Position numbers and translations under genes: made by a program. From NCBI GenBank assembly GCA_900768535.1, contig CAAGDE010000001.1:1498-65497 (forward strand): DNA of 64,000 nt, given 5' to 3'. Each line of letters begins with the position of its first letter. Position 1 is the stretch's first letter. The DNA is from Clostridia bacterium (GTDB lineage: Bacteria > Bacillota > Clostridia > Oscillospirales > CAG-272). Below the pieces are notes generated by a model. It saw nothing but the letters and a program-made list of their open reading frames with translations, made no database searches and was not told the origin of the DNA. Shown here in pieces: positions 1-31,139 of the stretch.

Positions 1-364
1 AAAGCCGGAGCGGGTGGCGTTCAATCAGATTGTGGAGTATATTTCGGTCAATTTGCGCCTGGAGCAGCTGACGCCGGCATCCCTCTGTCTCACCTTTTAC
101 ATCAGCGAGCGGACGCTCTCCCGCATGTTTGCGAAGAATATCGGAATTTCGCCTGCAAAGTATATCATGCTGAAGCGGGTAGAGTTTTCCAAGCAGCTGC
201 TGTCCACAACGAAGTATACGGTGGAGGAAATTTCGGAAATGCTGCATTTCTCCGGCTCCCGACATTTTCGTCATGTGTTTACCGAATGCTACGGCATGCC
301 GCCGACCGAATGGAGACGGAAAAACCGCACCGAAGAAAAGAACCCTTACGCAGAACATATTTGA
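1..364 (+). CDS. AraC-family transcriptional regulator, C-terminal HTH part (5' end lies outside the window)
   Basis: Frame is open to the window edge. ISERTLSRMFAKNIGISPAKYIMLKRVEFSKQLL...FSGSRHFRHVFTECYGMPPTEWRR is a typical AraC/XylS double-HTH domain. Confidence 0.8.
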   Translation, partial: KPERVAFNQIVEYISVNLRLEQLTPASLCLTFYISERTLSRMFAKNIGISPAKYIMLKRVEFSKQLLSTTKYTVEEISEMLHFSGSRHFRHVFTECYGMPPTEWRRKNRTEEKNPYAEHI

Positions 365-461: not shown

Positions 462-490
462 TTGTCAGGGCTTCCCGAAAGAGATATAAT
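462..490 (+). promoter_or_regulatory. Candidate sigma-A promoter (TTGTCA-17 nt-TATAAT) about 200 nt upstream of the 689 gene
   Basis: TTGTCA at 462..467, 17-nt spacer, TATAAT at 485..490. Confidence 0.4.
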
Positions 491-688: not shown

Positions 689-3118
689 ATGAAACAATCC
701 AAACGCGCTTTATCCATGCTCTTGGCAATTCTGATGGCTCTGACAACCGGATTTTCCGCTATGCTGCCCGCTTTTGCGGAAGAGGGCAACGAGGCAAAGA
801 TCGGCGAGACCGAGTATGCAACGCTGGAGGCGGCAATCGATGCTGCCGGAGACGGAGCAACAATTACGCTTCTCCGGGATCTGACATGGTCGGTGAAGGA
901 AAAGAAGTTAGAGAAAGACCTTATCATCGACGGAGGAACGGAAAATCGCAAAATTACTTCTACGGTTGGCTATCTGTTTGATGTTAATCGTAATATCACA
1001 TTTAAAAATCTTAGACTGGATACAAAGAGTGGCTTCCGCTTTAAAAATACCGCCGGAAAGCCGTCGGTTGCAACTGTTGAAAATGTCGAATGGACACTTG
1101 GCAGCGGACTGTTAGTCAACATTCAGGGATCGGTTGCCGATGTTCCGCAGATTTTCAATGTGGTGAATTCCACAATCACCAAAACCGCCGTTTCCGGAGA
1201 CCCGATCATTGCAACCTATGGGGAAAACACCCGCGATATTACGATCAACATTGAAAACTCCACGCTGAATCAGAACGGGGGACAAACGAACGGTAATGTT
1301 GGTAATACCTCTATGTTCTTTTTCAACAAGGGGGCATCCGTGACCCTCAATCTGAAAGAGAACTCGGTACTGAAGTATAATCCGCTTGGAAAAATGAATG
1401 CTGTACAGTCTGTTGTGGTATATGCACGTCCCACCACAATCAACGCAGATGCTACCGTGGCTGTTCACCTGGTCGGCTCCGGTGCAGCAACCCCTTTAAA
1501 CTATTTCATGTTTAACACCGGGAGCGGCAAGCTGACTGTAAACGATGCCGGTGCCGCATGGAACGTCAGCGCTGCGATTGCGGAGCGCGGCTTCTATCTT
1601 CCTGCGTCCGGTAGCTATGATGTCAATGAAACACGCAAGGCACTTGTCTCTTCAAATTGCTTTGCAATCGGAACAGATGCACAGCCGCTGACCTATCGGA
1701 AATCTAAAAATACTTATACCAAAGCGGATCTGGTCGAAGCGGATTATGCGCTTTCCGGTTATACCCTGAAGATTGGCGAGACTCTGTATAATACATGGGA
1801 AGAAGCGCTTGCAGTTGGGGGCGAAATCGAACTGATTGCTAACGCACCGAACATCAGTGCACAGAAAAAACTTACAAAAGATGTTGTAATCGACGGACAG
1901 GGAAAATATATTTTCAGTTCGACTGCCTATTTCTTTGAGCTTGTCGGGCACAGCGCTACCTTCCGCAATCTTAATTTGAATGTCGTAAAGGGAATCGGAA
2001 CCGGTACAGGTGACGGCGCGGCGGTTCTGTTTGAAAACTGCAAAATTGATGTGACAGGCGGTTTGCTGCTGAACATCAAGGCGCAGACAAACGTTATCTT
2101 CCGGAATACGACCGTTGTTTCCACGGCGGCAGATGCGGCGATCCTGCTTAAAGACGGCGCGACATCTGAAATCAAGCTGATGAACTCTACCATCGATTAC
2201 CGGAAGGGCGGCAGCGGAGACATTACCTCCATCATCAACATCGCAAGCAAATCCAAGGGCACGGTTGTGCTCGATGGTACCTCGAAACTGATCTACAGCC
2301 CGAACAGTGCCGGGGCCTACAATCAGATCATTACGGTTCACGATGCAGAAACCGCCGCAACGGTTCATCTGAAGGCGGGTGCGGTGCTGGAGTACAACAC
2401 GGTTCCGAAAAGCACCACATCTCTTGCATTCCTGCGCAGCAATGCGAGTCTGACTCTTGTGGACGAGGGGGCAACGTGGAAGGTCAGCGCGGCGGTTGCT
2501 AAGAAAGGCTACAGCTTTGTGAACACCTCGGGGACCTTCAACTGCAAGACCGTTGCCATGAAAACGGCGGAAGGTAAGCTGTACAGCCCGACCGAGGTCA
2601 TCAAACTGACCGCCGCCACCGCATTTGTTCCGGTTACGATGGGCGTGACCAACGAGGCGGGCGCATCCATCCGGTTGGATCTTCCCACCGGAATCCGGTT
2701 CGGTACGCAGATTGATAAGACGTTCTATGAAACGCTTGGTGCGTCCGCAGTTTACGGTGTGAGAGTTGCCCGCAAGGATGTGCTGAAGAATGGCAATTTC
2801 GCTGCATTGACGGATGAAAATTCGGTTTCCTACACCTCCGCCCAAGAGGGCTTCCGTTGGGTGACCGAGGGTGAGTTCTTCCGCACGGTTCTGATGAACA
2901 TCAATGAAGCGAACTATCAGACCGAGTTGAGCTGGAGCGCATTTGTGACAGTCACCTATGAGGGCGGAAAGACCGCGACCTACTATGCAGACTACACCGA
3001 AGCGGACAACTGCCGCTCGCTGGCGCAGGTTGCATCCCGCGCTCTGCAGGACACCACCGTAACCTGGACGGCGGATGAAACCGCACTGCTGAAAACCATT
3101 GCCGGGATCAATGACTGA
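689..3118 (+). CDS. Secreted 809-aa protein with two tandem beta-helix-like modules and a C-terminal Ig-like module; function unknown
   Basis: Signal peptide MKQSKRALSMLLAILMALTTGFSAMLPAFA. Internal duplication (KIGETEYATLEAAIDAAGDGATITLLRDL...IIDGG versus KIGETLYNTWEEALAVGGEIELIAN...VIDGQG). RBS AAGGGGA upstream. Paralog at 7569..9131. Confidence 0.85.
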   Translation: MKQSKRALSMLLAILMALTTGFSAMLPAFAEEGNEAKIGETEYATLEAAIDAAGDGATITLLRDLTWSVKEKKLEKDLIIDGGTENRKITSTVGYLFDVNRNITFKNLRLDTKSGFRFKNTAGKPSVATVENVEWTLGSGLLVNIQGSVADVPQIFNVVNSTITKTAVSGDPIIATYGENTRDITINIENSTLNQNGGQTNGNVGNTSMFFFNKGASVTLNLKENSVLKYNPLGKMNAVQSVVVYARPTTINADATVAVHLVGSGAATPLNYFMFNTGSGKLTVNDAGAAWNVSAAIAERGFYLPASGSYDVNETRKALVSSNCFAIGTDAQPLTYRKSKNTYTKADLVEADYALSGYTLKIGETLYNTWEEALAVGGEIELIANAPNISAQKKLTKDVVIDGQGKYIFSSTAYFFELVGHSATFRNLNLNVVKGIGTGTGDGAAVLFENCKIDVTGGLLLNIKAQTNVIFRNTTVVSTAADAAILLKDGATSEIKLMNSTIDYRKGGSGDITSIINIASKSKGTVVLDGTSKLIYSPNSAGAYNQIITVHDAETAATVHLKAGAVLEYNTVPKSTTSLAFLRSNASLTLVDEGATWKVSAAVAKKGYSFVNTSGTFNCKTVAMKTAEGKLYSPTEVIKLTAATAFVPVTMGVTNEAGASIRLDLPTGIRFGTQIDKTFYETLGASAVYGVRVARKDVLKNGNFAALTDENSVSYTSAQEGFRWVTEGEFFRTVLMNINEANYQTELSWSAFVTVTYEGGKTATYYADYTEADNCRSLAQVASRALQDTTVTWTADETALLKTIAGIND

Positions 3119-3137
3119 ACCGGGGGAGGAGAAAATC

Positions 3138-3260
3138 ATGAAACACACTTATACAATGCCGCAGGCTGACCTGTTCTCCCTTTGCAAGGAGGATATCCTT
3201 TGCTCCTCAGGTGAAAACGATTTGGACGTCAGTAAGCTGTTTATCATTCAGGGGATCTGA
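3138..3260 (+). CDS. Mini-ORF, 40 aa (MKHTYTMPQADLFSLCKEDILCSSGENDLDVSKLFIIQGI); member of a 3-copy family in this window
   Basis: ATG 6 nt after GGAGGAG and 19 nt after the upstream stop. N-terminal motif shared with 26041..26151 and 33589..33717. Confidence 0.5.
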   Translation: MKHTYTMPQADLFSLCKEDILCSSGENDLDVSKLFIIQGI

Positions 3261-3275
3261 AGTAAGGGAGAAACG

Positions 3276-4115
3276 ATGACAATGGGAAATTTGATACAAC
3301 TTTGCACCGAGGCATCGCGGAAGGATGAGCCGTTCACCAAGGGGTCGTGGCCTGCCGCAGGGATGGGATATGTCTTTGTCACGGACGGCGGAAAACTGTT
3401 GGTGATCGACGGCGGTGAAACCGAGGGGGACGCGGAAATGCTCGTGTCCCTTCTGGAGAAAAAATACGGTGCGCACCCAGTGGTGGATCTTTGGATCCTC
3501 ACGCATTCGCACCTTGACCATTACGGTGCGCTGGAGATCATCGCCAAAACACCGTCGCTCCGGGAGCGCCTCACGGTGTCAAGGCTTTGCGCCTGCACCG
3601 ATATTCCGGTATCCTTTCCGGAGAATGACCAGGCGAGAATTGCGGCAATTCCGGGGTTGCTGGGCTGTGAACAGGTGACACCGCACGCAGGGGATGTGCT
3701 GACGGTGGATGACCTGACTGTCCGGATTCTGTACACCTGGGAGAACGACCCCAAGCTCGCCGATGCGAAATCGTTCAACCGCCTGTCCCTGATCTTCACG
3801 GTCACGGGCGCGGCGCACCGGGCAATGTTTGTCGGCGACTCCACACCGACAGGACCTACGGTTGTGCGCGACAGCACCGATCCGGCGCTCCTGAAAAGCG
3901 ACTTTCTGCAGCTGGCACACCATGGGATGGACGGCGGTAACATCGGCTTTTACCGCCTGGTCAATCCGGAAACCGTTCTGATTCCCTGCTCGCTGGGCGG
4001 CGCAAAGTTTATCAAAACCCCAGAGACCGGCTGCAACTATTTCAACCGGTATATTCAGGAGCGCGCGCTGAGCGTTGTCTGCGCCTGCATGGGCAATACG
4101 GAAATGGAATTCTGA
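3276..4115 (+). CDS. MBL-fold metallo-hydrolase, cytoplasmic
   Basis: HxHxDH motif (LTHSHLDHYGAL), later FVGD and LQLAHHG motifs. No signal peptide. RBS AGGGAGA. Confidence 0.85.
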   Translation: MTMGNLIQLCTEASRKDEPFTKGSWPAAGMGYVFVTDGGKLLVIDGGETEGDAEMLVSLLEKKYGAHPVVDLWILTHSHLDHYGALEIIAKTPSLRERLTVSRLCACTDIPVSFPENDQARIAAIPGLLGCEQVTPHAGDVLTVDDLTVRILYTWENDPKLADAKSFNRLSLIFTVTGAAHRAMFVGDSTPTGPTVVRDSTDPALLKSDFLQLAHHGMDGGNIGFYRLVNPETVLIPCSLGGAKFIKTPETGCNYFNRYIQERALSVVCACMGNTEMEF

Positions 4116-4145
4116 ACCGTCTTCAAAACAAGAAGGAGAAAAATA

Positions 4146-5708
4146 ATGAGAAAATTTCTGATCCTGCTGCTTGCCTGCCTGACCGTGTTGCCCTCGCTGG
4201 CTGCGTGCAACAAGCAGAACCACACCACACCGGGAACCGCCACCTCCGGAAATGCTTCCGGCACGCAAAGCCCCGCCGACACCGAGCCTGAGACCGATGA
4301 ATGGGGCAGAGTGATTGAACCGACCGACTTTGACGTTTCCGGGCTGGATTTCGGCGGGGAAAAGCTGACCGTGCTTTGTGCCGGGCACGATGAGAACGGC
4401 TATTGGGCAATGGATCCCGGGCTTTACAAGAAGCCGTCAGATGCCCTTGAAATGGCGCTCTACAAGCGCAATATGCAGATCGAGCAGGACCTTGGGCTGA
4501 CGCTCAAAGTGGCATATAAGCCTGCAAACGGCGCCTCCAGCGAGCTGAACAAGACCGTTGAGACCGATGCAAAATCAGGGCTGAACGAATATGACATCGT
4601 TGTCAACTATGCGGCATACGGTGTTGTGGAAAACCTGCGCGGCTACTACATGGACCTGCTTGCCGCCGACACGCCGCACCTGCAGCTGGATAAGCCCTGG
4701 TACAACCAGAACTTTATCGAGAACACCCAGGCGTTCGGGCATCTGTATTACATCATCGGGGACTATAACCTCTGTGCCTACAACCGGCTGATGGCAACCT
4801 ACTTCAACCGCACGCTTTGCGCGGCGTATGAGTTGATTCCGGACGACAGCGGAGATGCGCTGTACGATCTGGTTCAGGAAAAAAAGTGGACCTATAGCCG
4901 GCTGTTTGAGTTTGCAAAGTTCTCCCATGATCTCAACGGAAACGGGGAGAAGGACGCGGGCGATATTTACGGTCTGCTTTCCAATGCGGGTTGCGAAGGG
5001 TACGACGGGTTCCTCTACGCCTTCAATCTGGACCTGACCGTGACCAACGATGACGGCACGCACGAATGGAACGTAAACAACAATCAGAAGATGACCGATG
5101 CAATGGAAAAGCTGATCAGCCTGTGGCGCCAGGACGGCGTTTGGATGGTCGGAAAAACGCCCAACTCCGGCTCCACCTCGCAGGACCAATACAAGATGTT
5201 CGCCGACGGCCATGCACTCTTTGATATTGACGTCATCTACCGCTATGCCGCGCAGAACAAGGCATTTCGCGCGATGAAGGACAAATACGGTCTGCTCCCG
5301 CTGCCGAAGTATGATGAGGAGCAGAAAAACTACGGATCCGGCGCACAGGATTCCTACGGAATGACCAGCATTATGAAGGGGAGCGAGGAACTGAACGCCC
5401 GTCGCTGTGCATATTTGGAGTATGCAAACTACCTCAGCTACCAGAACTCCCGCCCCTACTACTTTGAGAAGATCATGAAGGCGCAGTACCTCGGCACGGC
5501 AAAGGCATCGCAGGTTTTCGACATCATTCTTGCCCATGCGGACTTCGACTTTGGCGAGCAGTATTCGGTTGCGCTGGAAGGTGCAAAGAAGCTGCTTTGG
5601 AGATACGTTGCCAAGAATGAGGAGACCGTCTCCGGTGCTTGGGCGACCAACGAAAAGCTGCTGACCAAGAAGCTGCAGGATCTGGATGCCTGGTTCCTGG
5701 CGCAGTAA
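4146..5708 (+). CDS. Extracellular solute-binding lipoprotein (ABC-type sugar SBP, about 520 aa class)
   Basis: Lipobox LPSLAAC. Length and sequence resemble the SBPs at 35091..36620 and 63554.., and the fragment at 38636..39250. RBS AAGGAGA. Confidence 0.85.
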   Translation: MRKFLILLLACLTVLPSLAACNKQNHTTPGTATSGNASGTQSPADTEPETDEWGRVIEPTDFDVSGLDFGGEKLTVLCAGHDENGYWAMDPGLYKKPSDALEMALYKRNMQIEQDLGLTLKVAYKPANGASSELNKTVETDAKSGLNEYDIVVNYAAYGVVENLRGYYMDLLAADTPHLQLDKPWYNQNFIENTQAFGHLYYIIGDYNLCAYNRLMATYFNRTLCAAYELIPDDSGDALYDLVQEKKWTYSRLFEFAKFSHDLNGNGEKDAGDIYGLLSNAGCEGYDGFLYAFNLDLTVTNDDGTHEWNVNNNQKMTDAMEKLISLWRQDGVWMVGKTPNSGSTSQDQYKMFADGHALFDIDVIYRYAAQNKAFRAMKDKYGLLPLPKYDEEQKNYGSGAQDSYGMTSIMKGSEELNARRCAYLEYANYLSYQNSRPYYFEKIMKAQYLGTAKASQVFDIILAHADFDFGEQYSVALEGAKKLLWRYVAKNEETVSGAWATNEKLLTKKLQDLDAWFLAQ

Positions 5709-5718
5709 GCGGGTACAG

Positions 5719-7572
5719 ATGGATATGAACAAAATCAAATATGCAGTGCTCTGGCTGTTGATGCTTTCCATGGCGCTGCCGTTCTCTGCCTGCGTGGGCA
5801 ATCTGCCCGCCCCGACACAGTCGGAGGAGTCCCCCGGCTCGGAATCCGCTCCCCCGGGTTCCGGAACGGCTGAGCCGGTCGCGGACACCCGCTTTCCTGT
5901 CGTAAAGGATGGGAAAGCGGTTCCGGTCGTCTATCCGATGGACGATCTGGACGCGATGGGGTATGCAAAAACGGTTGCGAATAAGATCAAAAGCCTGACC
6001 GGCGCCGATGCGGAATTCCGCGAGGACAGCCGCCGTGTGGACGAGGCGCCGGACACCGAAAGCTACGAAATTCTCATCGGTTCGGTCGACAATCCGGTCT
6101 GCGAAACGGTCCGGGCGCGCATTCCGTACGGCGGCGCGCTGATTGCGGTTGAAGGGCACAAACTCTGCGTGCTGGCAATGGACCCGGATCTCCTCGGCAA
6201 AGCCGCGCTCAAGCTGCTGGCGACGCTGACGTCTGCCTGCGACAAGGACACAAAGGAGATTCTGCTTGCCGGGGATCTGTCGGTCGTCATCGAGGGAACA
6301 GACCTGCTTTCGATGGTCCCGGCGTTCGAAGGAAAAACGCCTGCCGGAACCTATGAAAGCACCGCCAATGCGATGCAGGTGCTGTTCCGGGACGTGACCG
6401 AGGCAGAAGCGGACGCATATCAATCCAAGGTTCTTTCTGCCGGTTACAGTCTCTATTCCGGCGATCAGACGACCGGAAAAACGAAGGACGCCAAGAACCG
6501 GTTCCTGACCTTCCGGCGCGACCGCTATATTCTGACGCTTCTCTACACGCCAAGTGACCGCATCCTGCGCGTGCTGATTGAGACCTCCGACACCACGGCA
6601 CTCGGCTGGCGGGCAGAGGATCAGACCCCGGTGGAGAAGGTCTGCGACGTCACGTTGACGCAGGTCGGTCTGCTTTACGATGTCGGCAGTTTCAACGGTA
6701 TGTGCTACGTGATGCGGCTGGAGGACGGCAGCTTCATCGTCACCGATGGCGGTCATGCCCTGCAGAAGAATGCCGACCGGCTCTATCGGATTCTGCGCAA
6801 GCAGGCGCCGGACCCTGACCGCATCGTGATTGCGGCGTGGATCTTCTCGCATTCGCACGGAGACCACATCGGAATGTTCCCGTATTTCACCGCGTCCTAT
6901 GCCGACCGCGTGACGGTTGAGCGGTTTATCTACAACTTCCCGACTGCCCGGCAGATTACCGGGGACAACACCGCCGCAGGAAACGGCAGGGTGACCAATC
7001 AGGTCGGGCACTACCGGGGTGCAGCCGTCACCAACGCACACCCCGGGCAGGTGATGCTGATTCACGGCGCGAAAATTCGGATTCTCTACACGGCAGACCT
7101 GTTTGTGCCGCAGGAGATCTCCTACAGCAACACCGCCAGTATGTGCTGGACCGTTGAAGCAGGAGGCGTGAAGACCATGATGATGGGCGACCTCGGCGCA
7201 GAGGTGGCATCGGTGATGGAGGCGATTTACAGCGATGACGTCTTCGCTGCCGATGTGCTCCAGGTGGCGCATCACGGAATCAGCTCCTCGCCGAGCACCC
7301 TCTATCCGAAGGTGAATCCCGCCTGGGCGCTGATACCGCTGGGCACCGGTCCGCTCTCGTCGTGTGAGTACGCGGAGGACTGTATCAAATTTGTCAATGC
7401 CGCGCATAACCGCTTCTTCTTTACATCCGAAAAATGCAGGGAGCATGTGTATGTTGCCAATGACGACATTCTGATTCTGACCTTCCGCAACGGGCAGGTT
7501 GCGGATTCCCGTTTGTACGATACCGATTCCAGTTATCTGGATTCCGACACAGAAAGGAGTGCAATGCAATGA
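5719..7572 (+). CDS. Secreted (lipobox FSAC) two-part protein: N-terminal alpha/beta module plus C-terminal MBL-fold hydrolase
   Basis: MDMNKIKYAVLWLLMLSMALPFSAC. C-terminal FSHSHGDHIGMF (HxHxDH) and LQVAHHGI, paralogous to 3276..4115. Start 5719 or 5725 is uncertain. Confidence 0.8.
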   Translation: MDMNKIKYAVLWLLMLSMALPFSACVGNLPAPTQSEESPGSESAPPGSGTAEPVADTRFPVVKDGKAVPVVYPMDDLDAMGYAKTVANKIKSLTGADAEFREDSRRVDEAPDTESYEILIGSVDNPVCETVRARIPYGGALIAVEGHKLCVLAMDPDLLGKAALKLLATLTSACDKDTKEILLAGDLSVVIEGTDLLSMVPAFEGKTPAGTYESTANAMQVLFRDVTEAEADAYQSKVLSAGYSLYSGDQTTGKTKDAKNRFLTFRRDRYILTLLYTPSDRILRVLIETSDTTALGWRAEDQTPVEKVCDVTLTQVGLLYDVGSFNGMCYVMRLEDGSFIVTDGGHALQKNADRLYRILRKQAPDPDRIVIAAWIFSHSHGDHIGMFPYFTASYADRVTVERFIYNFPTARQITGDNTAAGNGRVTNQVGHYRGAAVTNAHPGQVMLIHGAKIRILYTADLFVPQEISYSNTASMCWTVEAGGVKTMMMGDLGAEVASVMEAIYSDDVFAADVLQVAHHGISSSPSTLYPKVNPAWALIPLGTGPLSSCEYAEDCIKFVNAAHNRFFFTSEKCREHVYVANDDILILTFRNGQVADSRLYDTDSSYLDSDTERSAMQ

Positions 7573-9131
7573 ACCGGAAGAATAGACGGTGCGTATCCCT
7601 GCTTCTTGCCCTCTGCATGATGCTGGTCTGCGCTTTGGTACCGGGGGCAGGTGCCGAGGACGCAGGAAACGAGGCAAGGATCGGCGAGACCGAGTATGCA
7701 ACGCTGGGAGAGGCGATTGATGCCTCAAAGGATGGAGACACCATCACGGTCCTGCGGGATCTGACCCTGACCGCAATCAACAAGGAAATCTATAAGAATA
7801 TCACCATCGACGGCGGCGAATCCAAGTATACGGTCAGAGCGACCGGCGGGTATACCTTCCAGTTCTGCGACAGCTTCACGCTGAAAAATCTGAAGCTGGA
7901 TACGCAGAACGGGTTCCGCTTCTGGAACACCAGCCGGAACGGGCGGGAGGCGGTCGTCGGAACGCTGGAGAATGTGGAATGGACGGTCGGCAAAGGGCTG
8001 TTTGTCAATCTGCAGGGCGAAAAGTCGGGCATTCCGCAAACCTTGAACATGATTCGCTCGACCGTTACCAAAACGGCGGTCGCGGGGGACCCCATCATCG
8101 CAACCTACAACAAGGGCGGCAGCGATATTATGATCAACATAGAGGACAGTGTGCTGAACCAGAACGGCGGGCAGACGAACGCCCACACGGGAAACAAGTC
8201 GATGCTCTTCTTCTATCAAAAGGGCAATGTGACGCTGAATGTGAAGGGCAACAGCGCCCTGAATTATACGCCGCTCGGGAAAGCGGATTCCGTGCAGTCG
8301 CTGGCGGTCATCGGCTCCGCAACGGTGACGGTGAATCTTGAGAACACGGTGCGGCTGCATCTTGCGGAATCGGAAAACGCAACGGATAAGCACGGATTTC
8401 TCTACAAGGACGGGAGCGGGACCGCGACAGTGAACGATGCGGGCGCGGTCTGGAGCGCCACCCGCGCCGTTGCGGCAGAGGGGATCCTGAAGCCGAATTT
8501 TGACACCTACAACGGCGAAACAACGATCCGCTGGAGCCTGAAGGACGGCGACCGGCTCGTCTCTGCCGGCTCGGAGTCTCCCTTCCGCTATGCGGCGACC
8601 TCGGAGACGGTTTTGTGCCGCTTTTCGACCTATACCTACCGGCAGGAGGATCTCGTGATGAATGCCGGTGCCGCCATCCGCACCGAGGCGCCCAATGCGA
8701 TGCAGATTTCCGGTGCAATCACGAAAACGCTTTCCGATTACCTTGCGGAGGTCGGGTATAACGTCACCTACGAACTGTTCCTCGTCAAAAAAGCCGACCT
8801 TGAAGCAACCAAGCTCGGCGGCGAGACCTACAATCTGCACCTGCTCGGCGGGCGGGACAAGAAGCAGGTCAACCGGATCTATTGGAGCGAGAGTGAGGAT
8901 GGCAAGACGCTCCTGTTCCGGGGCTGTGTTTACGGTCTGGACGCAGAGGTGGAATACGTGATGGTTGCCGCTGTGACCTTCCTGTTCGGCGAGGAGGAGA
9001 TGCTGTACCATTCCGGGATCGTGGAGGCAGACCACGTGCGCTCGGTCAGGGACATTGCAGCCCGGGCACTCAAGGACGCGGAATATGCCGATAACGCCTA
9101 TCTGAAATCGCTTGTCTCCGGTGCAACCTGA
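7569..9131 (+). CDS. Secreted 520-aa beta-helix-like protein, single-module paralog of 689..3118
   Basis: ATGA start/stop overlap with the upstream gene. Signal peptide. ARIGETEYATLGEAIDASKDGDTITVLRDL...TIDGG aligns with the 689 protein along its length. Confidence 0.85.
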   Translation: MNRKNRRCVSLLLALCMMLVCALVPGAGAEDAGNEARIGETEYATLGEAIDASKDGDTITVLRDLTLTAINKEIYKNITIDGGESKYTVRATGGYTFQFCDSFTLKNLKLDTQNGFRFWNTSRNGREAVVGTLENVEWTVGKGLFVNLQGEKSGIPQTLNMIRSTVTKTAVAGDPIIATYNKGGSDIMINIEDSVLNQNGGQTNAHTGNKSMLFFYQKGNVTLNVKGNSALNYTPLGKADSVQSLAVIGSATVTVNLENTVRLHLAESENATDKHGFLYKDGSGTATVNDAGAVWSATRAVAAEGILKPNFDTYNGETTIRWSLKDGDRLVSAGSESPFRYAATSETVLCRFSTYTYRQEDLVMNAGAAIRTEAPNAMQISGAITKTLSDYLAEVGYNVTYELFLVKKADLEATKLGGETYNLHLLGGRDKKQVNRIYWSESEDGKTLLFRGCVYGLDAEVEYVMVAAVTFLFGEEEMLYHSGIVEADHVRSVRDIAARALKDAEYADNAYLKSLVSGAT

Positions 9132-9156
9132 ATCGGAGCGGAAAGAAGGGTATCTT

Positions 9157-9390
9157 ATGAAATACATCAAACCGATCCTGTTGATCCTGTTCCTGCTTGC
9201 ATTCCTGCTTACCGCGGTTTCCTGCACCGATGCCGGTGAGGATACGCCCGGTACTTCGGCTCCGACCGGGGCCGAGCAGACCGCGCAATTCTCCGAAACG
9301 GATTCCGGCAACGTTACCGAAGCGCCGACACAGCCCAACACGGACTATGACGGAATGGACACCGACGATAAATGGACCAAGCCGTACTGA
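9157..9390 (+). CDS. Small (77 aa) Thr/Pro/Glu-rich lipoprotein
   Basis: MKYIKPILLILFLLAFLLTAVSC lipobox. RBS GAAAGAAGGG. Paralog at 30903..31139 shares the TEAPT[QE]P..TD..DG..W tail. Confidence 0.6.
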   Translation: MKYIKPILLILFLLAFLLTAVSCTDAGEDTPGTSAPTGAEQTAQFSETDSGNVTEAPTQPNTDYDGMDTDDKWTKPY

Positions 9391-9438
9391 CCTGCAGGTT
9401 CTGCGGCGACACCGATGAGAAAGGGAAAAGAGAAGAGA

Positions 9439-10380
9439 ATGAAGATCGCATCCAACACGGGCTTTGTTCCTGCATTGGCGGATTACGCACACGGCATTCC
9501 GATGCTGCGGCAGGCAGGCTTTGACTGCTTTGACCTGTCGATCTGCTGCCAGATCGATACGGACGGATATTTTGAGGGCGCAGAAGGGGAGGCGCGGGCA
9601 AAGGAGGTGCGCCGGATTGCCGATGCCTGCGGCATGGTTTGCAACCAATCCCATGCGCCTTACCCGACCTCCTATCGGGATGATACGCCGGAGCACATCG
9701 AAAAGAATCAGGCGCTCCCGGAAAAACTGCGGCGGGCGATGGAAATTGCGGCAATCGTCGGAGCAAAGGCAATCGTTGTTCATCCGCAGCAGCATCTGAG
9801 ATGGGCTGACTGTGCCGAGGCTCTGAAGGAGCAGAATCTCGCGTTTTACGAGTCGCTTCTGCCGCTGTGCCGCGCCTACAACATCCGGGTTGCGGTTGAG
9901 AATATGTGGCAGCGCAACCGGTACGGGCGCTCGGTTGTGGATTCTGTCTGCTCGACCCCGCGTGAATTTTTTGACTATATGGAGATGCTGGACAGCGAGT
10001 GGTTTGTTGCCTGCCTGGACATCGGGCACTGCACGGTGACCAATCACTGCCCGGAGGACCTGATTCGCACCCTGGGGAAAAAGCATCTGCATCTGCTCCA
10101 TGTACACGACACGGACGGAAAGGCTGACCTGCACACGCTGCCGTTCCAGTCGTCCGCAACCGATTGGGAGGCGGTGACGGACGCGCTGGCAGAGATCGGT
10201 TATGAAGGTGAGCTGACCCTGGAGGCGGATAACTTTCACGGCAGAATCCCCGCCGGGCTGTTGCAGCCAACGCTGACCTACATGGCATCGGTTGCGCGCT
10301 ATCTGGCAGATGCGACCGAGCGGAAAAAGCAGGCGCTGAAAGATGCCGAAGCCGGGCACCGGGAAGGGAGCCGCCTATGA
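9439..10380 (+). CDS. Sugar phosphate isomerase/epimerase (xylose-isomerase-like TIM barrel)
   Basis: Pattern IVVHP...VAVENM...LDIGH...HVHD...LTLEA is typical of the AP-endonuclease-2/xylose-isomerase-like TIM-barrel family. Start at MKIASN (the ORF track starts at 9415). Confidence 0.8.
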   Translation: MKIASNTGFVPALADYAHGIPMLRQAGFDCFDLSICCQIDTDGYFEGAEGEARAKEVRRIADACGMVCNQSHAPYPTSYRDDTPEHIEKNQALPEKLRRAMEIAAIVGAKAIVVHPQQHLRWADCAEALKEQNLAFYESLLPLCRAYNIRVAVENMWQRNRYGRSVVDSVCSTPREFFDYMEMLDSEWFVACLDIGHCTVTNHCPEDLIRTLGKKHLHLLHVHDTDGKADLHTLPFQSSATDWEAVTDALAEIGYEGELTLEADNFHGRIPAGLLQPTLTYMASVARYLADATERKKQALKDAEAGHREGSRL

Positions 10381-11171
10381 AACTACCGTATCGGAACCCG
10401 ATCCCGGTTGCGGCGCATCGCGGAAACGCAGCCCATTTCCCCGAAAACACGATGGCATCTTTCCGCTCGGCGGCGGAGCTGCACCCGGATATGGTGGAAA
10501 CGGATGTCCACATGACACGCGACGGAGAGCTGATCCTCATGCATGACCACACGGTCGACCGGACCACAAACGGCACCGGACTGATCCGCGAGCAGACACT
10601 GGCAGAGCTGAAGCGGCTGGATGCCGGCAGTTGGAAGGGAGACGCCTTTGGCGGTGAGCAGATCCCGACCTTTCGGGAATTTCTGGAGTTCTTCCGGGGA
10701 GAGCCGGAGATGTTGTTCAACATTGAACTGAAGGATTACCCGGCGGATTCCGGTGCGTTTGCCTATGAATCCGCAAAAAAGACGATTGCGATGATGGAGG
10801 AGTACGGCATCACCGAGCGCAGCGTTGTCAACACCTGGAGCGGCGAACTGAACGAATGGCTGGACGCGACCTATGGAAAGCGGCTGCGGATCCATGCCTA
10901 TTCGCCGCAGGAGCGCATGGGGCTGCGGCAGAAGCGGTTCGTTTATGACTATGCGTACTGCGTCTGCCTGTTCGGAACTGCCGAATGCCCGGTCGTGCCA
11001 AACCTCTTTTTCCGTCTGGCGAAGGACTACGGCGCGGAGCCTTGGGTCTATTTTAAGAAGGAAACGCCCGAGTTGGTCGACCGGGCATTGGAGGCGGGCG
11101 CAATGCTGTTTACCTCCAACGATCCGGCATGGCTGATGGCATATCTGCGCGCGAAGGGGTTGCATGACTGA
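10377..11171 (+). CDS. Glycerophosphodiester phosphodiesterase (GDPD family)
   Basis: AHRGNAAHFPENTMASF...ETDVHMTRDGELILMHDHTVDRTTNGTG is the canonical GDPD N-terminal catalytic signature. ATGA overlap with the upstream gene. Confidence 0.9.
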   Translation: MKLPYRNPIPVAAHRGNAAHFPENTMASFRSAAELHPDMVETDVHMTRDGELILMHDHTVDRTTNGTGLIREQTLAELKRLDAGSWKGDAFGGEQIPTFREFLEFFRGEPEMLFNIELKDYPADSGAFAYESAKKTIAMMEEYGITERSVVNTWSGELNEWLDATYGKRLRIHAYSPQERMGLRQKRFVYDYAYCVCLFGTAECPVVPNLFFRLAKDYGAEPWVYFKKETPELVDRALEAGAMLFTSNDPAWLMAYLRAKGLHD

Positions 11172-11856
11172 CGGCGCTATGAAACAAACGGAAACCAAAG
11201 AACCCATCCGGGCGTGTCTGTTCGATCTGGACGGTGTGCTGGTATTCACCGACCGCTATCACTATCTGGCGTGGAAATCCGTTGCGGATGAAAACGGCTG
11301 GGATTTCAATGAAACGGTCAACCTCCGGCTTCGCGGCATTCCGCGCCAGGAATCCCTGAACGAAATTCTGAAATACAATCACATTGAGCTTGCGGACGCC
11401 GAAAAGGCACGTCTGGCAGACCTGAAAAATGCCCGCTACGTGCAAATGCTGCAGGGAATTGGGGAGAACGATGCCTATCCGGGCGCCTTTGCCCTGATTC
11501 GGACGCTGCGAAACCGGGGCATCCGGATTGCACTCTGCTCCTCGAGTAAGAATGCCGGGCTTGTGCTGGAAAGGCTGGGCGTCCGGGACCTGTTTGACGC
11601 GATCGTCACGGGCAATGACATCCGGCGTGCAAAGCCGGACCCCGAAATCTTTCTCACCGCCGCAACCCGGCTTGGGGTCCCGCCGTCCGCCTGTGTGGTC
11701 TTTGAGGATTCCCTGGCGGGCATTCAGGGGGCAATTGCCGCAGGTATGCAAACGGTTGGCGTTGGAAACCGCGCGGAGCTTGGCGGCGTGGCTGCCTGCT
11801 GCCTGGATTCCTATGCGGAACTCGACCCGGATACCCTCCGGCTCCGGGAAGTGTGA
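11164..11856 (+). CDS. pgmB: Beta-phosphoglucomutase (HAD superfamily)
   Basis: DxDG nucleophile motif in LFDLDGVLVFTD, then RLRGIPRQESLNEIL, SSSKNA, and FEDSLAGIQGAIAAGM. Alternative start at 11179. Confidence 0.8.
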   Translation: MTDGAMKQTETKEPIRACLFDLDGVLVFTDRYHYLAWKSVADENGWDFNETVNLRLRGIPRQESLNEILKYNHIELADAEKARLADLKNARYVQMLQGIGENDAYPGAFALIRTLRNRGIRIALCSSSKNAGLVLERLGVRDLFDAIVTGNDIRRAKPDPEIFLTAATRLGVPPSACVVFEDSLAGIQGAIAAGMQTVGVGNRAELGGVAACCLDSYAELDPDTLRLREV

Positions 11857-11872
11857 GGCAGGGAAGAAACAA

Positions 11873-13099
11873 ATGCACGAACAAATGACAGCAAAAAGAA
11901 AGCAGCAGATCCTGATTGTGGTCTGCTGCATGGTTTACGGCTTTGCGTATGCGGGGCGGTACGGCTACAACGCAAACATTGCGCCGATTATGGAATTTTA
12001 CGGTGTCACGCGCGCCGAGGCGGGCCTGGTCAGCACCTGCTTCTTCTTTGCCTACGGCACGATGCAGCTGGTACACGGCATTCTTTGCCGGTTCTACCCG
12101 AAAAAAATCGTCATCCCGGCGGCGCTGTTCCTCTCGGCTGCCCTGAACCTGACCGTGTTCTTCCAGCCGCCGTTTGCATCCATCAAGTATCTCTGGCTGG
12201 TCAACGGCATCTGCCAGTCGGTGCTCTGGCCGTCGCTGGTGCTGACGCTGGGCGAGACGCTGGAGCCGGGCATGATGAAGCAGGCGGTCCTGGTCATCAG
12301 CCTTGCAACGATGTTCGGCACGCTGATCTCCTACGGCGGGAGCGCACTGTTCAATCTGTTCGCGTTTTTCCGGGGCTCCTTCCTCCTGGGCGCGGTTCTG
12401 ACGGTTCTGATCGGGCTGATCTGGCTGTTCTCCTACGACCGGCTGACCGCAGTGCGCTATGCTGCGCCGCCCGCGGAGGAGACGACCGCCAAAAACAGCC
12501 GGCAAGCGCTTGGCGGCGGGTTGGTCGGTCTCCTGGCAGCCTGCGTGCTGTTTGCGGCGGTCTGCAACTTTGTCAAGGACGGACTGAGCACCTGGACTCC
12601 GGTCATTCTGAAGGAACGATTCGGGCTGGGGGACAGCGTCTCGATGATTCTCACGCTGATCCTGCCGGTGTTCGGGCTGGCAGGCTCTTTGCTGGCGCTG
12701 GCGGTCAACCGGAAAATCAAGGATTACCGACTGATGGCGGGTGTGTTCTATGTGGGGCTGTCGCTCTGCCTTGGCGGACTGCTCCTGACCTTCCGCGGTG
12801 GCGGCGTGGTGCTGACGCTGGCGCTGCTCGGCGTGATTTCCTGCCTGGCTTATGCGGTCAACAACGTGGTGACCAGCATGATGCCGCTGGAGATGCGCGA
12901 CCGTGTGAACTCCGGCTTTCTGGCGGGGCTGATGAACAGCGCGACCTACATCGGCAGCACCGCAAGTGCCTACGGGCTGGGTCTGATTGCAGACGGCGCG
13001 GGATGGAACGCAGTCATTCTGGCTATGCTTGGCGCATCGGCGCTTTCCGCGCTTGTCGGAATCGTCTGTGCCGGGCTGATACATTGGATTAGACAATAG
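11873..13099 (+). CDS. MFS transporter (possibly organophosphate/sugar-phosphate antiporter-like)
   Basis: About 12 hydrophobic segments. Start moved from 11528 to ATG 11873 because the upstream extension overlaps pgmB. Paralog-like to 26313..27542. Confidence 0.85.
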   Translation: MHEQMTAKRKQQILIVVCCMVYGFAYAGRYGYNANIAPIMEFYGVTRAEAGLVSTCFFFAYGTMQLVHGILCRFYPKKIVIPAALFLSAALNLTVFFQPPFASIKYLWLVNGICQSVLWPSLVLTLGETLEPGMMKQAVLVISLATMFGTLISYGGSALFNLFAFFRGSFLLGAVLTVLIGLIWLFSYDRLTAVRYAAPPAEETTAKNSRQALGGGLVGLLAACVLFAAVCNFVKDGLSTWTPVILKERFGLGDSVSMILTLILPVFGLAGSLLALAVNRKIKDYRLMAGVFYVGLSLCLGGLLLTFRGGGVVLTLALLGVISCLAYAVNNVVTSMMPLEMRDRVNSGFLAGLMNSATYIGSTASAYGLGLIADGAGWNAVILAMLGASALSALVGIVCAGLIHWIRQ

Positions 13100-13102
13100 A
13101 AA

Positions 13103-13133
13103 GAACCGCGCCGTCAAAAGCGCGGTCCTTTTG
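13103..13133 (+). terminator. Rho-independent terminator after the MFS gene
   Basis: ACCGCG...CGCGGT stem followed by CCTTTTG. Confidence 0.55.
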
Positions 13134-13159
13134 ATACAGATATTTCAAAATGACACAAA

Positions 13160-13464: not shown

Positions 13465-14346
13465 ATGGATGATACGTCTGTCGAAAGTCCGTTTGAAAAA
13501 GTCTGGCTGACCGAAAATCCGCTTGAAATAAATACCGATAACATGGATCTGCGGATACAATGCTCCAGAATCGTGTATTCGCGCCATGAAGCGTTATACA
13601 ATCATTATCATTCACACGATTTTTTTGAGCTGCATTATGTTATCGAGGGTCAGCTTGATGTAGAATTTGAAAATATCGGGGTCATCAGCGTCAAACGGGG
13701 GAATCTGATCGTTTGTAAGCCGAATCTCGTTCACAGGACGGTGTATGCTTCCCCCAATACGCAAAAATTTGTTTTCGGGTTTTACTGTGACACCAAAAAG
13801 GATCTTCTTACAAAAGCCAGGGAAGCGATTCTTCGTTCTCCGATCAAGGTGATTGAGGACACAGACCGGATGCAGATGTTCATTGTGACGATGCTGAGCT
13901 GTGTCCGATATTTCAACTCCGTTACAAACGAGATTCTGAAGAACCAACTGGAATCCTTTGTTCTCGAGGTGCTTAACATCTACATCAATGACGGAAATTA
14001 CAGGGAGAGCTCCGTTGTTGTCAAGGAGGAGCACATTGTTGAGGCGGCAAAGGAATTCATTGTATTGAACGCCAACCGCTCGATTTCGGTTGAAGATGTG
14101 GCGAAGGAGCTTGGGTTCAGCGTGAGGCATCTGAACCGTATCGCCAAGCTCTCCGTCGGCTGTACGCTCAGTGAAATGATTATATCGGCGAGAATCTCAT
14201 ATGCCAAGGAGCTTTTAAAGAATACCACGCTGACGGTCTCGGAAATTGCCGAAAGGGGCAACTTTGTGGACATCAGCACATTCACAAAATTTTTCAAGCG
14301 CTATGCGGGAGTACCGCCGACGGAATACAGAAAGACTGTACAATAG
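13465..14346 (+). CDS. AraC-family regulator (cupin-like N-terminal domain plus HTH); visibly lower GC than its neighbours
   Basis: C-terminal SVEDVAKELGFSVRHLNRIAKL...ISTFTKFFKRYAGVPPTEYRK matches the AraC HTH. N-terminal HSHDFFELHYV is cupin-like. Confidence 0.85.
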   Translation: MDDTSVESPFEKVWLTENPLEINTDNMDLRIQCSRIVYSRHEALYNHYHSHDFFELHYVIEGQLDVEFENIGVISVKRGNLIVCKPNLVHRTVYASPNTQKFVFGFYCDTKKDLLTKAREAILRSPIKVIEDTDRMQMFIVTMLSCVRYFNSVTNEILKNQLESFVLEVLNIYINDGNYRESSVVVKEEHIVEAAKEFIVLNANRSISVEDVAKELGFSVRHLNRIAKLSVGCTLSEMIISARISYAKELLKNTTLTVSEIAERGNFVDISTFTKFFKRYAGVPPTEYRKTVQ

Positions 14347-14350
14347 AGCA

Positions 14351-14402
14351 AAGGGCTGTGCCGAACGACGAATTCAGGTCGTTTGATACAGCCCTTATTT
14401 TT
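14351..14402 (+). terminator. Rho-independent terminator
   Basis: AAGGGCTGT (14351..14359) pairs with ACAGCCCTT (14388..14396), followed by ATTTTTG. Confidence 0.65.
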
Positions 14403-14695
14403 GTGCTGTTTATATTCATTTGCCAAAATACGGCATATGGCACGTTGATGTCCGATTCTGACAAATTAATGTGCGTAATCTGACCTTTTTTTGGATTCTG
14501 ATTTATGATATTCTATTGTTGCAAGAGGAAAGGAGGCACATAATGATGAAAAGGATTAAGCCAAAGGAGAAACGCATCCGTTCGTTTCGCCTTTCTGTTA
14601 TGGCTCCGAAATGAGCCCCTGCCGCGTCCGTCCGGCGGAGGTGGTGCGGATGGCAAATATAAAAAATAATGTAATCATAACAGGAGAAATACTCT

Positions 14696-15640: not shown

Positions 15641-15711
15641 GGGGCTGCGGTCAGCACCCCTTCGTTCATGAGCAGTGCTTGATCATCAAAATCAGAAAAG
15701 AGGAATGGATT

Positions 15712-17514: not shown

Positions 17515-17529
17515 GCGGGGAGAGCCGGG

Positions 17530-28674: not shown

Positions 28675-28684
28675 GGTTTTTCGG

Positions 28685-30889: not shown

Positions 30890-30902
30890 GACGGTTTCTC
30901 CT

Positions 30903-31139
30903 TTATCGGATCTCCGGCGACCAAAGTCCGCCGTCCGGGTCGGTTACAGGCTCGGTGGGCGCTTCGGTTGCGGGCTGGGTGGGTGTTTCACCGCCCCTTT
31001 GCGTGGCGGCTTCGGTGGGCTGCTCCGTAACGGAAGCGGACGGGGCGGTACCGTCTTCCCGCGGTTTATCTCCCGCGCACGCTGTGAGAAATGTACCAAG
31101 CAGCGTCAGAACAAGGACCAGAATCAGAATTCGTTTCAT
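30903..31139 (-). CDS. Small (78 aa) Thr/Pro/Glu-rich lipoprotein, paralog of 9157..9390
   Basis: MKRILILVLVLTLLGTFLTAC lipobox. AAGGAGA lies 7 nt upstream. Tail is ATEAPTEPVTDPDGGLWSPEIR. Confidence 0.6.
   Translation of the reverse strand: MKRILILVLVLTLLGTFLTACAGDKPREDGTAPSASVTEQPTEAATQRGGETPTQPATEAPTEPVTDPDGGLWSPEIR

Follow-up and report, generated by a model that had tools for sequence, protein, structure and literature searches.

Pce (CbpE) of Streptococcus pneumoniae hydrolyses phosphocholine from the GalNAc-6-PCho of teichoic acid, and its C-terminal choline-binding repeats dock the enzyme. In gut Clostridia, a secreted enzyme of the endonuclease/exonuclease/phosphatase (EEP) fold, the N-acetylglucosamine phosphodiesterase (GlcNAc-PDase), takes phosphocholine or phosphoethanolamine off GlcNAc-6-PC/PE, and mutagenesis has shown that its activity needs N60, D204, N206, D266, and H267 (bioRxiv 10.1101/2023.06.01.543256). 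Enzymes of the glycerophosphodiester phosphodiesterase (GDPD) family free glycerol-3-phosphate from glycerophosphodiesters and poly(glycerol phosphate) (PMC7086022), and CbiR, a cobamide phosphodiesterase of the AP_endonuc_2 family, demonstrates that this TIM-barrel family can hydrolyse a small-molecule sugar-phosphate diester (PMC7733943). Here, we describe a predicted operon of eleven genes (g01-g11) in a 64,000-nucleotide stretch (the window) of contig CAAGDE010000001.1 (assembly GCA_900768535.1, positions 1,498 to 65,497), whose source is an uncultured human-gut member of the Clostridia. In gene order the operon encodes a secreted beta-solenoid-like protein (g01), a short peptide (g02), a cytoplasmic hydrolase of the metallo-beta-lactamase (MBL) fold (g03), a lipoprotein resembling solute-binding proteins (SBP-like; g04), an MBL lipoprotein (g05), a second beta-solenoid-like protein (g06), a small acidic lipoprotein (g07), a TIM barrel (g08), a GDPD (g09), a beta-phosphoglucomutase (beta-PGM; g10), and a transporter of the major facilitator superfamily (MFS; g11). 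We tentatively read it as an AraC-controlled, two-layer nutrient-acquisition operon predicted to harvest phosphodiester-bearing glycans, with a surface module as the first layer and a lineage-specific set as the second, and give this reading somewhat less than an even chance.

MBL-fold hydrolases and their link to EEP proteins

The two MBL-fold proteins, g05 and g03, both exceed the Pfam cut-off for Lactamase_B, and their superfamily is marked by five metal-binding motifs (D; HxHxDH; H; D or C; H). The MBL lipoprotein g05 consists of two N-terminal alpha/beta domains followed by a C-terminal binuclear MBL domain of the Pce/ComEC type. The cytoplasmic g03, which has HSHLDH and AHHG motifs and no signal peptide, is a paralog of this catalytic domain (29% identity to g05 residues 338-562). 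An alignment of 64 sequences of the g05 family shows no variation at H389, H391, D393, H394, D502, H529, or H530, and H452 is kept in at least 90% of them. The initial annotation had called both MBL domains, had proposed a check of their catalytic residues, and had taken the AHHG motif as reminiscent of the nuclease/phosphodiesterase subgroup of the fold. The metal-binding motifs are indeed present and conserved, AHHG being MBL motif V with H529 and H530, and the structural comparison points in the same direction. The AlphaFold2 (AF2) model of g05 (pLDDT 89.7, pTM 0.84) has as its best Foldseek match the C-terminal nuclease domain of ComEC (9ic4, E 2e-13) and as its second the phosphodiesterase Pce/CbpE (1wra, 2bib; E 6e-12). 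RNase J, the MBL arylsulfatase 8gyg, PNGM-1, PqqB, and lactonases follow at least five orders of magnitude weaker. The model thus supports a place for the operon MBLs, in structural terms, in the phosphodiesterase corner of the MBL superfamily, and we infer that g05 and g03 would act as phosphodiesterases on a glycan.

Neither MBL was assigned to one of the two families nearest in fold. Unlike Pce, ComEC has Asp instead of the second His of motif II, and its motif III carries Asn (PMC8579336). Motifs II and III of g05 and g03 are canonical and form the Pce-type set. The best weak NCBIfam matches of both proteins are to ComEC_Rec2, at 27-32 bits against a cut-off of 190, and there is no membrane channel domain, so that an identity as ComEC/Rec2 was rejected. 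Membership of g05 in the Pce family was rejected as well, because Pfam finds no choline-binding repeats and the identity is only about 15%. We therefore describe g05 as resembling Pce in the modelled fold and ligands but do not file it as Pce.

The initial annotation had grouped the MBL proteins with four EEP-domain proteins encoded elsewhere in the window (beginning at 27700, 28685, 53751, and 61739), and the two themes turn out to be tied together by homology. The EEP lipoprotein 61739-63541 begins with a domain homologous to residues 66-205 (approximately) of g05 (hhalign probability 97.3%, E 2e-11), and this domain, which in g05 lies at window 5881-6300, is duplicated in the EEP lipoprotein. 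One surface-enzyme scaffold therefore carries either phosphoesterase fold in the same genome. The N-terminal sequence pattern of the paralogous EEP protein 53751-54974 was judged by eye to be similar to the g05-type domain. A profile of the N-terminal domains of g05 found no match in the PDB, and a scan of the representative library with the N-terminal region of g05 gave 226 matches only. Among 64 of these, sampled by length strata, 40 have a Pfam MBL domain at E <=0.001, and a few match weakly to GH20b and NAGLU_N, which are accessory domains of glycosidases. The four EEP proteins themselves have stood up: three reach the Pfam cut-off, 61739-63541 is added as a paralog, and the catalytic motifs N, E, GDxN, and DH are kept in all four. 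One of them matches weakly to ExeM/NucH, and the EEP protein 27700-28674 corresponds, by description, to the size and secretion pattern of the published GlcNAc-PDase. MBLs and EEPs each occur as a pair of a lipoprotein and a copy without signal peptide (g05/g03 and 61739/53751), which fits a stepwise breakdown first outside and then inside the cell.

The other proteins of the surface module

g04 itself has no match in Pfam, NCBIfam, or the PDB. The SBP lipoprotein of the initial annotation has a lipobox, and its SBP character is supported only through its relatives: six of 87 homologs carry PF01547 or PF13416, which suggests a divergent protein of the family-1 type. No genes for ABC (ATP-binding cassette) permeases or ATPases were found in the operon or in the second SBP-like locus of the window, and a permease-like family is present in only five of the 81 related loci described below. 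Elsewhere, g04-family genes adjoin PHP, metallophosphoesterase, AP_endonuc_2, SASA, and CotH genes, again with ABC partners absent.

The two large secreted proteins are paralogs. g01 contains an internal duplication, and its N-terminal module is 47% identical to g06. The initial annotation had called both of them beta-helix exoproteins. Secretion is supported by type-I signal peptides in both, and the AF2 model of g06 (pLDDT 87.9) shows a solenoid-like pattern of strands. A beta-helix fold is weakly supported: the Pfam Beta_helix profile gives 18.2 bits for g01, below the cut-off of 25.9, and nothing for g06, for which there is also no PDB sequence match and no significant PDB fold match of the model beyond Ig-like noise. 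In BFVD the model matches phage tailspikes of the pectate-lyase fold weakly (E about 1e-4, TM-scores <=0.29). g01 is hypervariable, with 62-66% identity to its orthologs against 87-95% for the neighbouring genes. Most of this variation falls within the two solenoid modules, the C-terminal domain being more conserved. In metagenomes, dozens of distinct variants of 816 residues were seen.

Two small genes accompany the large ones. g02 was called independently as a 40-residue gene on L082, a syntenic contig of 263 kb, and it is present in single copy in the window. With a profile built from nine copies, the family was detected in 25 or more of the 81 related loci (for example L006:14293-14424, L007:17394-17531, L010:7837-7971, L018:7516-7656, L020:5966-6097, and L023:10209-10337), adjoining large secreted genes or SBP-like genes. 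These peptides have 40-50 residues and no signal sequences and follow the pattern MKKxYxxPxhxxhxh...D[IV][IL]TxS with a subsequent acidic stretch, often ending in AP[ED]xWF; none matches an NCBIfam family. The N-terminus resembles leader motifs recognised by RRE domains in ribosomally synthesised and post-translationally modified peptides (RiPPs). A reading of g02 as a RiPP was rejected because there are no RiPP enzymes nearby. g07-like counterparts were found in L003:9691-9924, L004:6663-6896, L010:13407-13697, L014:7161-7406, L018:7610-7933, and L032:19814-20110. They combine a lipobox with an acidic linker and, at the C-terminus, the motif W-x-x-P-[YF] (the endings seen are DKWTKPY, GAWIGPF, GNWTPYY, GHWTPNY, and GKWSNPY), and they always follow a large secreted gene. 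From this arrangement, g07 is a plausible candidate for a membrane tether of secreted proteins.

Cytoplasmic enzymes and transporter

The assignments of TIM barrel, GDPD, and beta-PGM made by the initial annotation are borne out by profile scores (Table 1). The best NCBIfam model for g08 is the CbiR phosphodiesterase NF041277, at 48.5 bits against a cut-off of 105; sugar epimerase models score lower, and the closest PDB entry is MJ1311. A homolog with 40% identity is encoded in an MBL/SBP operon of Anaerotruncus (L011), and this one scores slightly better on the psicose 3-epimerase model than on CbiR. By its sequence g08 could be either a phosphodiesterase or a sugar isomerase/epimerase. CbiR itself was rejected, given the score and the lack of cobamide genes in the window. 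For g09, the motifs HRG, PENT, ETDV, MHD, and NIELK align with those of PDB entry 2pz0, as expected of a GDPD, and the NCBIfam model PRK09454 gives 110.9 bits, under the UgpQ equivalog cut-off of 264. g10 matches the solved beta-PGM structure 3nas at E 2.7e-43 and conserves the motifs of cap and core, which are fDLDGV (with the DxD nucleophile), lkGi.R, sSSkNa, KPdPdiF, and EDs.aGi.

The transporter was less well served by its earlier description as possibly antiporter-like. That g11 belongs to the MFS is clear (Table 1). It is only weakly closest to the organophosphate:phosphate antiporter (OPA) and anion:cation symporter families, with 70 bits for TIGR00881 (cut-off 407.75), 32.5 for glpT (632.55), and 27.7 for UhpC (564), and a PDB search found no relative. 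As the other MFS transporter of the window shows the same weak pattern, the resemblance to OPA proteins is generic, and with every OPA score far under its cut-off an assignment as a GlpT/UhpC-type antiporter was rejected.

Operon structure

The eleven genes span 12.4 kb on one strand. Their starts were refined by inspection of ribosome-binding sites (RBS), by the N-termini of homologs, and by the independent gene calls of L082, which has the same genes in identical organisation. The intergenic distances are, in order, 19, 15, 30, 10-16, -4, 25, 48, -4, -8, and 16 nt. All open reading frames (ORFs) and the range of gaps (-8 to 48 nt) agree with the initial annotation, as do the position behind an AraC gene and the absence of an internal terminator. 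The regulator is cut by the window start, and its ortholog is full-length (317 residues, with AraC_binding and HTH_18 domains) at the same position in L082 and in L001, the sister species UMGS1014. Terminator-like sites in positions 1-15000 are about as numerous as in shuffled sequence (17 against 15.4 +/- 4.5). Those on the forward strand inside the operon have weak stems and poor T tails, and the sole convincing hairpin, at 13105-13126, lies directly 3' of the MFS stop codon. A promoter-like site precedes the operon, and a perfect one (12/12, 13331-13359) opens the next unit. An Rfam scan of the leader of about 200 nt and of the whole window gave no RNA element. Lipoboxes were found in g04, g05, and g07, and signal peptides are absent from g02, g03, and g08-g10. 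Based on the gaps, the promoter-like site, the terminator, and the organisation of L082, we predict that 689-13099 is a real, single operon.

Conservation of the module across genomes

A profile scan of species-representative genomes confirmed 497 relatives of g05, and 81 of their loci were fetched and clustered. The gene clusters of these loci were annotated in part, and all gene counts from them are lower bounds, with spurious antisense ORF calls in GC-rich loci (e.g. L003, L019, and L064_8009). Nearly all of the g05-relative loci returned belong to uncultured Clostridia from the gut of humans or of other mammals (ruminants for the most part), and one genome often has several copies. The nearest genomes to the source of the window are UMGS1014, UMGS1865, a Hadza metagenome-assembled genome (MAG), and 'Eubacterium sp. 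CAG:180'. The protein used for g06 in the assembly index was P0214, which is 93% identical to it.

The close relatives L003 and L082 keep g01-g11. The sister species UMGS1014 has no GDPD: window positions 10385-11104 are replaced there by about 19 bp (L001:14695-14715), so that the TIM barrel adjoins the beta-PGM gene. The MFS transporter is missing from it as well, and a 439-residue 'ORF' behind its beta-PGM gene was judged spurious. g03 is retained in L001-L006, L010, L014, and L018. A locus with 35% identity (L006) keeps only the cytoplasmic MBL, the SBP-like protein, the MBL lipoprotein, and a beta-solenoid gene, and it lies downstream of GH43 and melibiase-like genes. The SBP-like family co-occurs in 30-38 of the 81 loci, and in about one third of the loci its gene adjoins the MBL lipoprotein gene or lies within a few genes of it, usually upstream. 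AraC regulators and the beta-solenoid family were each found in 16 loci, TIM homologs in seven, beta-PGM in three, and the GDPD and this MFS transporter in one each. Further neighbours of the family are GH43, melibiase-like, GH2, metallophosphoesterase, PHP, BNR_2, esterase, DHDPS, FucI, and FGGY kinase genes. Nucleotide-salvage and competence genes were not found in the neighbourhoods read. In L034, L041, L048, and L064, which are from Clostridia MAGs, tandem arrays of three to five MBL lipoprotein genes were observed (about 575-590 residues each).

The conserved unit is the pair of SBP-like and MBL lipoproteins, to which some loci add the cytoplasmic MBL, the beta-solenoid protein, the 40-residue peptide, and the acidic lipoprotein. 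This recurrence pattern means that the operon is composite, a conserved surface module joined to a lineage-specific cytoplasmic set. With respect to synteny across related genomes, which the initial annotation had proposed to compare, the eleven genes thus do not hold together as one unit. Only the surface module recurs, and GDPD and MFS are dispensable in the sister species.

Interpretation and alternative explanations

The initial annotation had suggested the degradation of a glycopolymer with phosphodiester bonds between its repeat units. The Pce/ComEC-like fold of the MBLs, the homology to an EEP protein, the intact GDPD and beta-PGM, and the precedent of the GlcNAc-PDases are in favour of this idea in the broader form given above. 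In the proposed mechanism, the first layer would consist of g04, g05, and the solenoid proteins g01 and g06 with g07, a set presumed to be conserved across hundreds of uncultured gut Clostridia. The solenoid proteins, probably held at the membrane by g07, and g04, as a ligand-capturing partner that works without an ABC transporter, would bind a polymeric glycan. g05 would then hydrolyse phosphodiester bonds in or on this glycan, and its targets could be phosphocholine, phosphoethanolamine, or phosphoglycerol head groups, or bonds of the backbone. Small anionic products would enter the cell, here probably through g11, where the cytoplasmic g03 and the TIM barrel g08 would finish the cleavage. 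In the second, partly dispensable layer g09 would split glycerophosphodiesters and g10 would feed beta-glucose-1-phosphate into glycolysis. We infer the roles of g04, g01, g06, and g07 and the nature of the transported species from gene context and homology. As for the kind of polymer, the initial annotation had named teichoic-acid-like, phosphomannan-like, or capsular ones, and no result discriminates among them.

Several observations speak against harvesting of phosphodiester-bearing glycans. Pfam found no GH, PL, or CE family in g01-g11 and therefore no recognisable carbohydrate-active enzyme (CAZyme), and the beta-solenoid proteins show no detectable catalytic signature. No function has been proven for a solute-binding protein that lacks an ABC transporter. 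Sulfatases, lactonases, thioesterases, and nucleases are likewise found within the MBL fold, and the rank of a fold match is not specificity. For g08, the role could be no more than that of a sugar isomerase or epimerase. A source of beta-glucose-1-phosphate (GH65 phosphorylase or other) was sought in the window and none was found, and glycosyl-1-phosphate polymers are normally alpha-linked. In addition, GDPD and MFS are missing from UMGS1014 and from every distant locus, and the TIM and beta-PGM homologs are confined to seven and three of the 81 loci, respectively. The genes that most directly suggest phosphodiesters and sugar phosphates are therefore outside of the conserved unit.

In a different explanation, the polymer is not phosphorylated, the MBLs remove sulfate, acyl, or lactone decorations, and GDPD, beta-PGM, and MFS are an unrelated add-on of the glpTQ type. 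A GDPD together with an OPA-type MFS transporter is indeed a known stand-alone unit in Escherichia coli (glpTQ), and GDPD and MFS are dispensable in the sister species. The significant fold neighbours of g05 include the arylsulfatase 8gyg as well as lactonase ancestors, and the related loci contain GH43, GH2, esterases, BNR_2, and sugar-catabolic genes. However, the two best fold neighbours of g05 are phosphodiesterases and lead in E-value by five to six orders of magnitude, the N-terminal domain of g05 is also fused to an EEP phosphoesterase domain, and PHP and metallophosphoesterase genes are found at equivalent positions in other SBP-like loci. We regard this explanation as unlikely. The scavenging of extracellular nucleic acids, an alternative already named in the initial annotation, could account for the ComEC nuclease domain as the top structural match of g05, for ComEC/Rec2 as the best weak NCBIfam match of both MBLs, and for the weak likeness of one EEP protein to ExeM/NucH. 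It has been made improbable by the missing ComEC channel domain and the motifs II and III, which are not of the ComEC type. Moreover, genes for a nucleotidase, a nucleoside transporter, or the phosphate regulon are absent from the loci with annotated genes, the neighbouring genes encode regulators and enzymes of sugar metabolism, the partner is an SBP that is of sugar type by its homologs, and a few of the relatives match GH20b and NAGLU_N weakly.

It could also be imagined that the organism remodels its own envelope, with the MBL lipoprotein and the GDPD trimming its teichoic-acid-like polymers and the solenoid proteins being antigens or adhesins. The fold shared with Pce would fit, as would the hypervariability of g01, which is typical of surface antigens, and the tandem arrays of MBL lipoproteins, and GDPD-family enzymes are known to hydrolyse teichoic acids, as do GlpQ and WhyD (PMC7086022, PMC9208761). 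Yet g09 is cytoplasmic, the regulators resemble sugar sensors in being AraC/cupin-type proteins, the beta-PGM, the MFS transporter, and the adjacent catabolic genes indicate consumption and not remodelling, and the genome has many paralogous loci bearing different glycosidases. This possibility is improbable to us to the same degree as nucleic-acid scavenging. A peptide-centred system, in which g02 would be a precursor or signal that is processed by the cytoplasmic MBL and sensed by the SBP-like lipoprotein, would explain why the g02 family, with its YxxPxL-like N-terminal motif and its acidic, aromatic C-terminus, is so widespread (at least 25 loci) and why g02 directly precedes the cytoplasmic MBL gene here. 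We consider it highly improbable, because RiPP maturases and exporters are lacking, as are binding proteins of the peptide type (family 5), the peptide matches no NCBIfam precursor family, the relatives of the SBP-like protein are of sugar type, and in several other loci (e.g. L007, L020, L023, and L024) the peptide follows large secreted genes and has no recognisable cytoplasmic MBL adjacent to it. Among all these explanations the harvesting of phosphodiester-bearing glycans remains the one we prefer.

The downstream unit and other loci of the window

Directly downstream lies a unit of an AraC regulator (AraC2), a divergent aldolase of the DHDPS family (14696-15640), an L-fucose/D-arabinose isomerase, and a ribulokinase. 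The isomerase reaches 991 bits with the FucI model NF008220 (cut-off 775). The kinase is a ribulokinase (NF003154, 699 bits against 428) and not a fuculokinase. In E. coli B, FucI and a ribulokinase are known to make up the route for D-arabinose. The adjacency of this unit to the operon is also present in L082. In L011 and L036 (Anaerotruncus) and in L058, DHDPS and FucI are part of one operon with SBP-like, YhcH-type, TIM-barrel, BNR_2, MBL lipoprotein, and esterase genes. These shared operons suggest that the adjacency is probably functional and that the operon may be linked to the downstream aldolase, isomerase, and ribulokinase genes. Such a link speculatively suggests an ulosonic acid such as ketodeoxyoctonate (Kdo) as the source of pyruvate and D-arabinose. 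The surface module, taken here as the orphan SBP-like lipoprotein, the Pce-like MBL lipoprotein, the tethered variable beta-solenoid proteins, and the 40-residue peptide, might be a hitherto unrecognised apparatus with which Gram-positive gut bacteria strip and harvest phosphodiester-decorated glycans of bacterial envelopes. In this organism it would feed the downstream unit, which would then be the first pathway of Kdo catabolism to be defined genetically, a reading that we consider decidedly improbable. The route, to be taken with the same reserve, would run from Kdo to pyruvate and D-arabinose and further via D-ribulose to D-ribulose-5-phosphate. If it were true, the organism would feed on Kdo of lipopolysaccharide (LPS) cores, capsules, or rhamnogalacturonan II (RG-II) that bears phosphate or phosphoethanolamine. 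In the literature we found no description of a Kdo catabolic gene cluster or of an MBL/SBP glycan module.

A second locus of similar logic contains an SBP-like lipoprotein (35091-36704, 28% identical to g04), a secreted protein of 445 residues, a GH31, a secreted EEP protein of 734 residues, and the EEP lipoprotein 27700-28674. Two secreted proteins of this locus have a common N-terminal domain with 59% identity, and an MFS gene (26148-27542) converges on the locus. At 19774-26039 the window encodes a subtilase (S8) of 1296 residues with a C-terminal dockerin, followed by a cohesin-containing protein of 792 residues, so that a protease is joined to an anchoring pair of the cellulosome style. 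The cluster 46888-60427 consists of a GH106-like protein, a GH2 beta-galactosidase, four GFO/IDH/MocA oxidoreductases, a protein of 658 residues for which Pfam gave no match, and an EEP protein, and presumably recalls loci for the oxidative (3-keto) breakdown of glycosides. Outside of the operon, the window is rich in carbohydrate genes, and besides GH31, GH2, and the GH106-like protein it has a GDSL esterase and several AraC regulators.

Table 1. Features of the operon and of related loci in the window
Feature	Position	Strand	Basis or remark
AraC-family regulator, C-terminal helix-turn-helix part	14..364	+	cut by window start
Sigma-70-like promoter candidate, TTGTCA-17-TATAAT	462..490	+	11/12 consensus matches
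g01, secreted 809-aa protein	689..3118	+	two beta-solenoid-like modules and conserved C-terminal domain
g02, 40-aa peptide, MKHTYTMPQADLFSL...	3138..3260	+	RBS/start; no signal sequence
g03, cytoplasmic MBL-fold hydrolase, 279 aa	3276..4115	+	Pfam Lactamase_B 38.8 bits
g04, SBP-like lipoprotein, lipobox LAAC	4146..5708	+	divergent family-1 type via homologs
g05, MBL lipoprotein, lipobox FSAC	5719 (or 5686/5725)..7572	+	AF2, Foldseek, alignment
g06, secreted 520-aa protein	7569..9131	+	one beta-solenoid-like module and Ig-like/helical C-terminal domain
g07, 77-aa acidic low-complexity lipoprotein, ends DKWTKPY	9157..9390	+	RBS; 77-aa call in L082
g08, cytoplasmic AP_endonuc_2 (xylose-isomerase-like) TIM barrel, 313 aa	9439..10380	+	Pfam 112.9 bits
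g09, cytoplasmic UgpQ-like GDPD	10377..11171	+	Pfam PF03009, 122.9 bits vs 23.6 cut-off
g10, beta-phosphoglucomutase	11164..11856	+	TIGR01990, 222.7 bits vs 189.4 equivalog cut-off
g11, MFS transporter with 12 transmembrane segments, 408 aa	11873..13099	+	Pfam MFS_1 90.9 bits
Intrinsic terminator closing the operon	13105..13135	+	hairpin 13105-13126, 7-bp GC-rich stem and T-run
Possibly linked unit: AraC2, DHDPS-family aldolase, L-fucose/D-arabinose isomerase, ribulokinase	13465..19185	+	Pfam
Second similar-logic locus	27700..37653	-	divergent AraC 36814-37653 on + strand
EEP protein without signal peptide	53751..54974	-	paralog of 61739-63541
EEP lipoprotein	61739..63541	+	paralog of 53751-54974; QE, GDxN, SDH motifs

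Comparison with known systems

The Clostridia of the gut (Oscillospiraceae and relatives) are numerous, but most have not been cultured and little is understood of how they forage for glycans. Lipoproteins of the SBP-like and MBL types are present as a pair in hundreds of species-level genomes; the pair has no name and no studied member, and most of the parts have no Pfam family. Should the MBL prove to be a phosphodiesterase directed at sugars, the module would define the way in which Gram-positive gut bacteria handle phosphodiester-linked or phosphodiester-decorated glycans. Such glycans include teichoic acids, glycans modified with phosphocholine or phosphoethanolamine, LPS cores, capsules, and phosphomannan. 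They abound in the gut and are active immunologically, yet models of polysaccharide utilisation loci (PULs) have largely passed them over. New glycoanalytical enzymes might then be obtained, as was the case with the EEP GlcNAc-PDase. There is unexplored surface biology, too, to which the SBP without ABC transporter, the tether-like lipoprotein, and the conserved mini-peptide each give a lead.

Of the known enzymes, Pce/CbpE has in common with g05 the extracellular binuclear MBL fold and the canonical HxHxDH, H, D, H ligands. Unlike Pce, g05 is anchored by a lipid and lacks choline-binding repeats. Its two N-terminal domains are unrelated to Pce, an SBP-like lipoprotein accompanies it, and a paralog of it is found in the cytoplasm. 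The C-terminal MBL domain of ComEC, an extracytoplasmic Mn-dependent phosphodiesterase (PMC8579336), is the best structural neighbour of g05, but g05 lacks the competence channel and OB-fold domains, has HxHxDH as motif II and a His as motif III, and is found in a context of sugar catabolism. The GlcNAc-PDases, which are secreted, metal-dependent, and sugar-specific phosphodiesterases, share habitat and clade with the EEP proteins of the window; their catalytic fold differs from the MBL fold of the operon. E. coli glpTQ and ugpQ and B. subtilis GlpQ (PMC7086022) have with the operon a GDPD-family enzyme in common, and the operon's MFS transporter is weakly OPA-like. g09 is cytoplasmic like UgpQ, and, in contrast to glpTQ, g11 scores under every OPA cut-off and both genes are optional in the lineage. 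CbiR provides the best-scoring, sub-cut-off NCBIfam model for g08, near which there are no cobamide genes.

With the PULs of Gram-positive bacteria (gpPULs) the operon shares its make-up: genes for a transcriptional regulator and a binding lipoprotein of the surface lie on one strand together with those for extracellular enzymes, a transporter, and enzymes that complete the breakdown in the cytoplasm. It differs from them in that a regulator and a transporter are present but Pfam finds no CAZyme, and hence no recognisable glycoside hydrolase or lyase, in that the SBP has no ABC partners, and in that the MFS transporter is absent in the sister species. We see in the operon a putative glycan-foraging locus built around a phosphodiesterase-type surface module that is widespread and unstudied.

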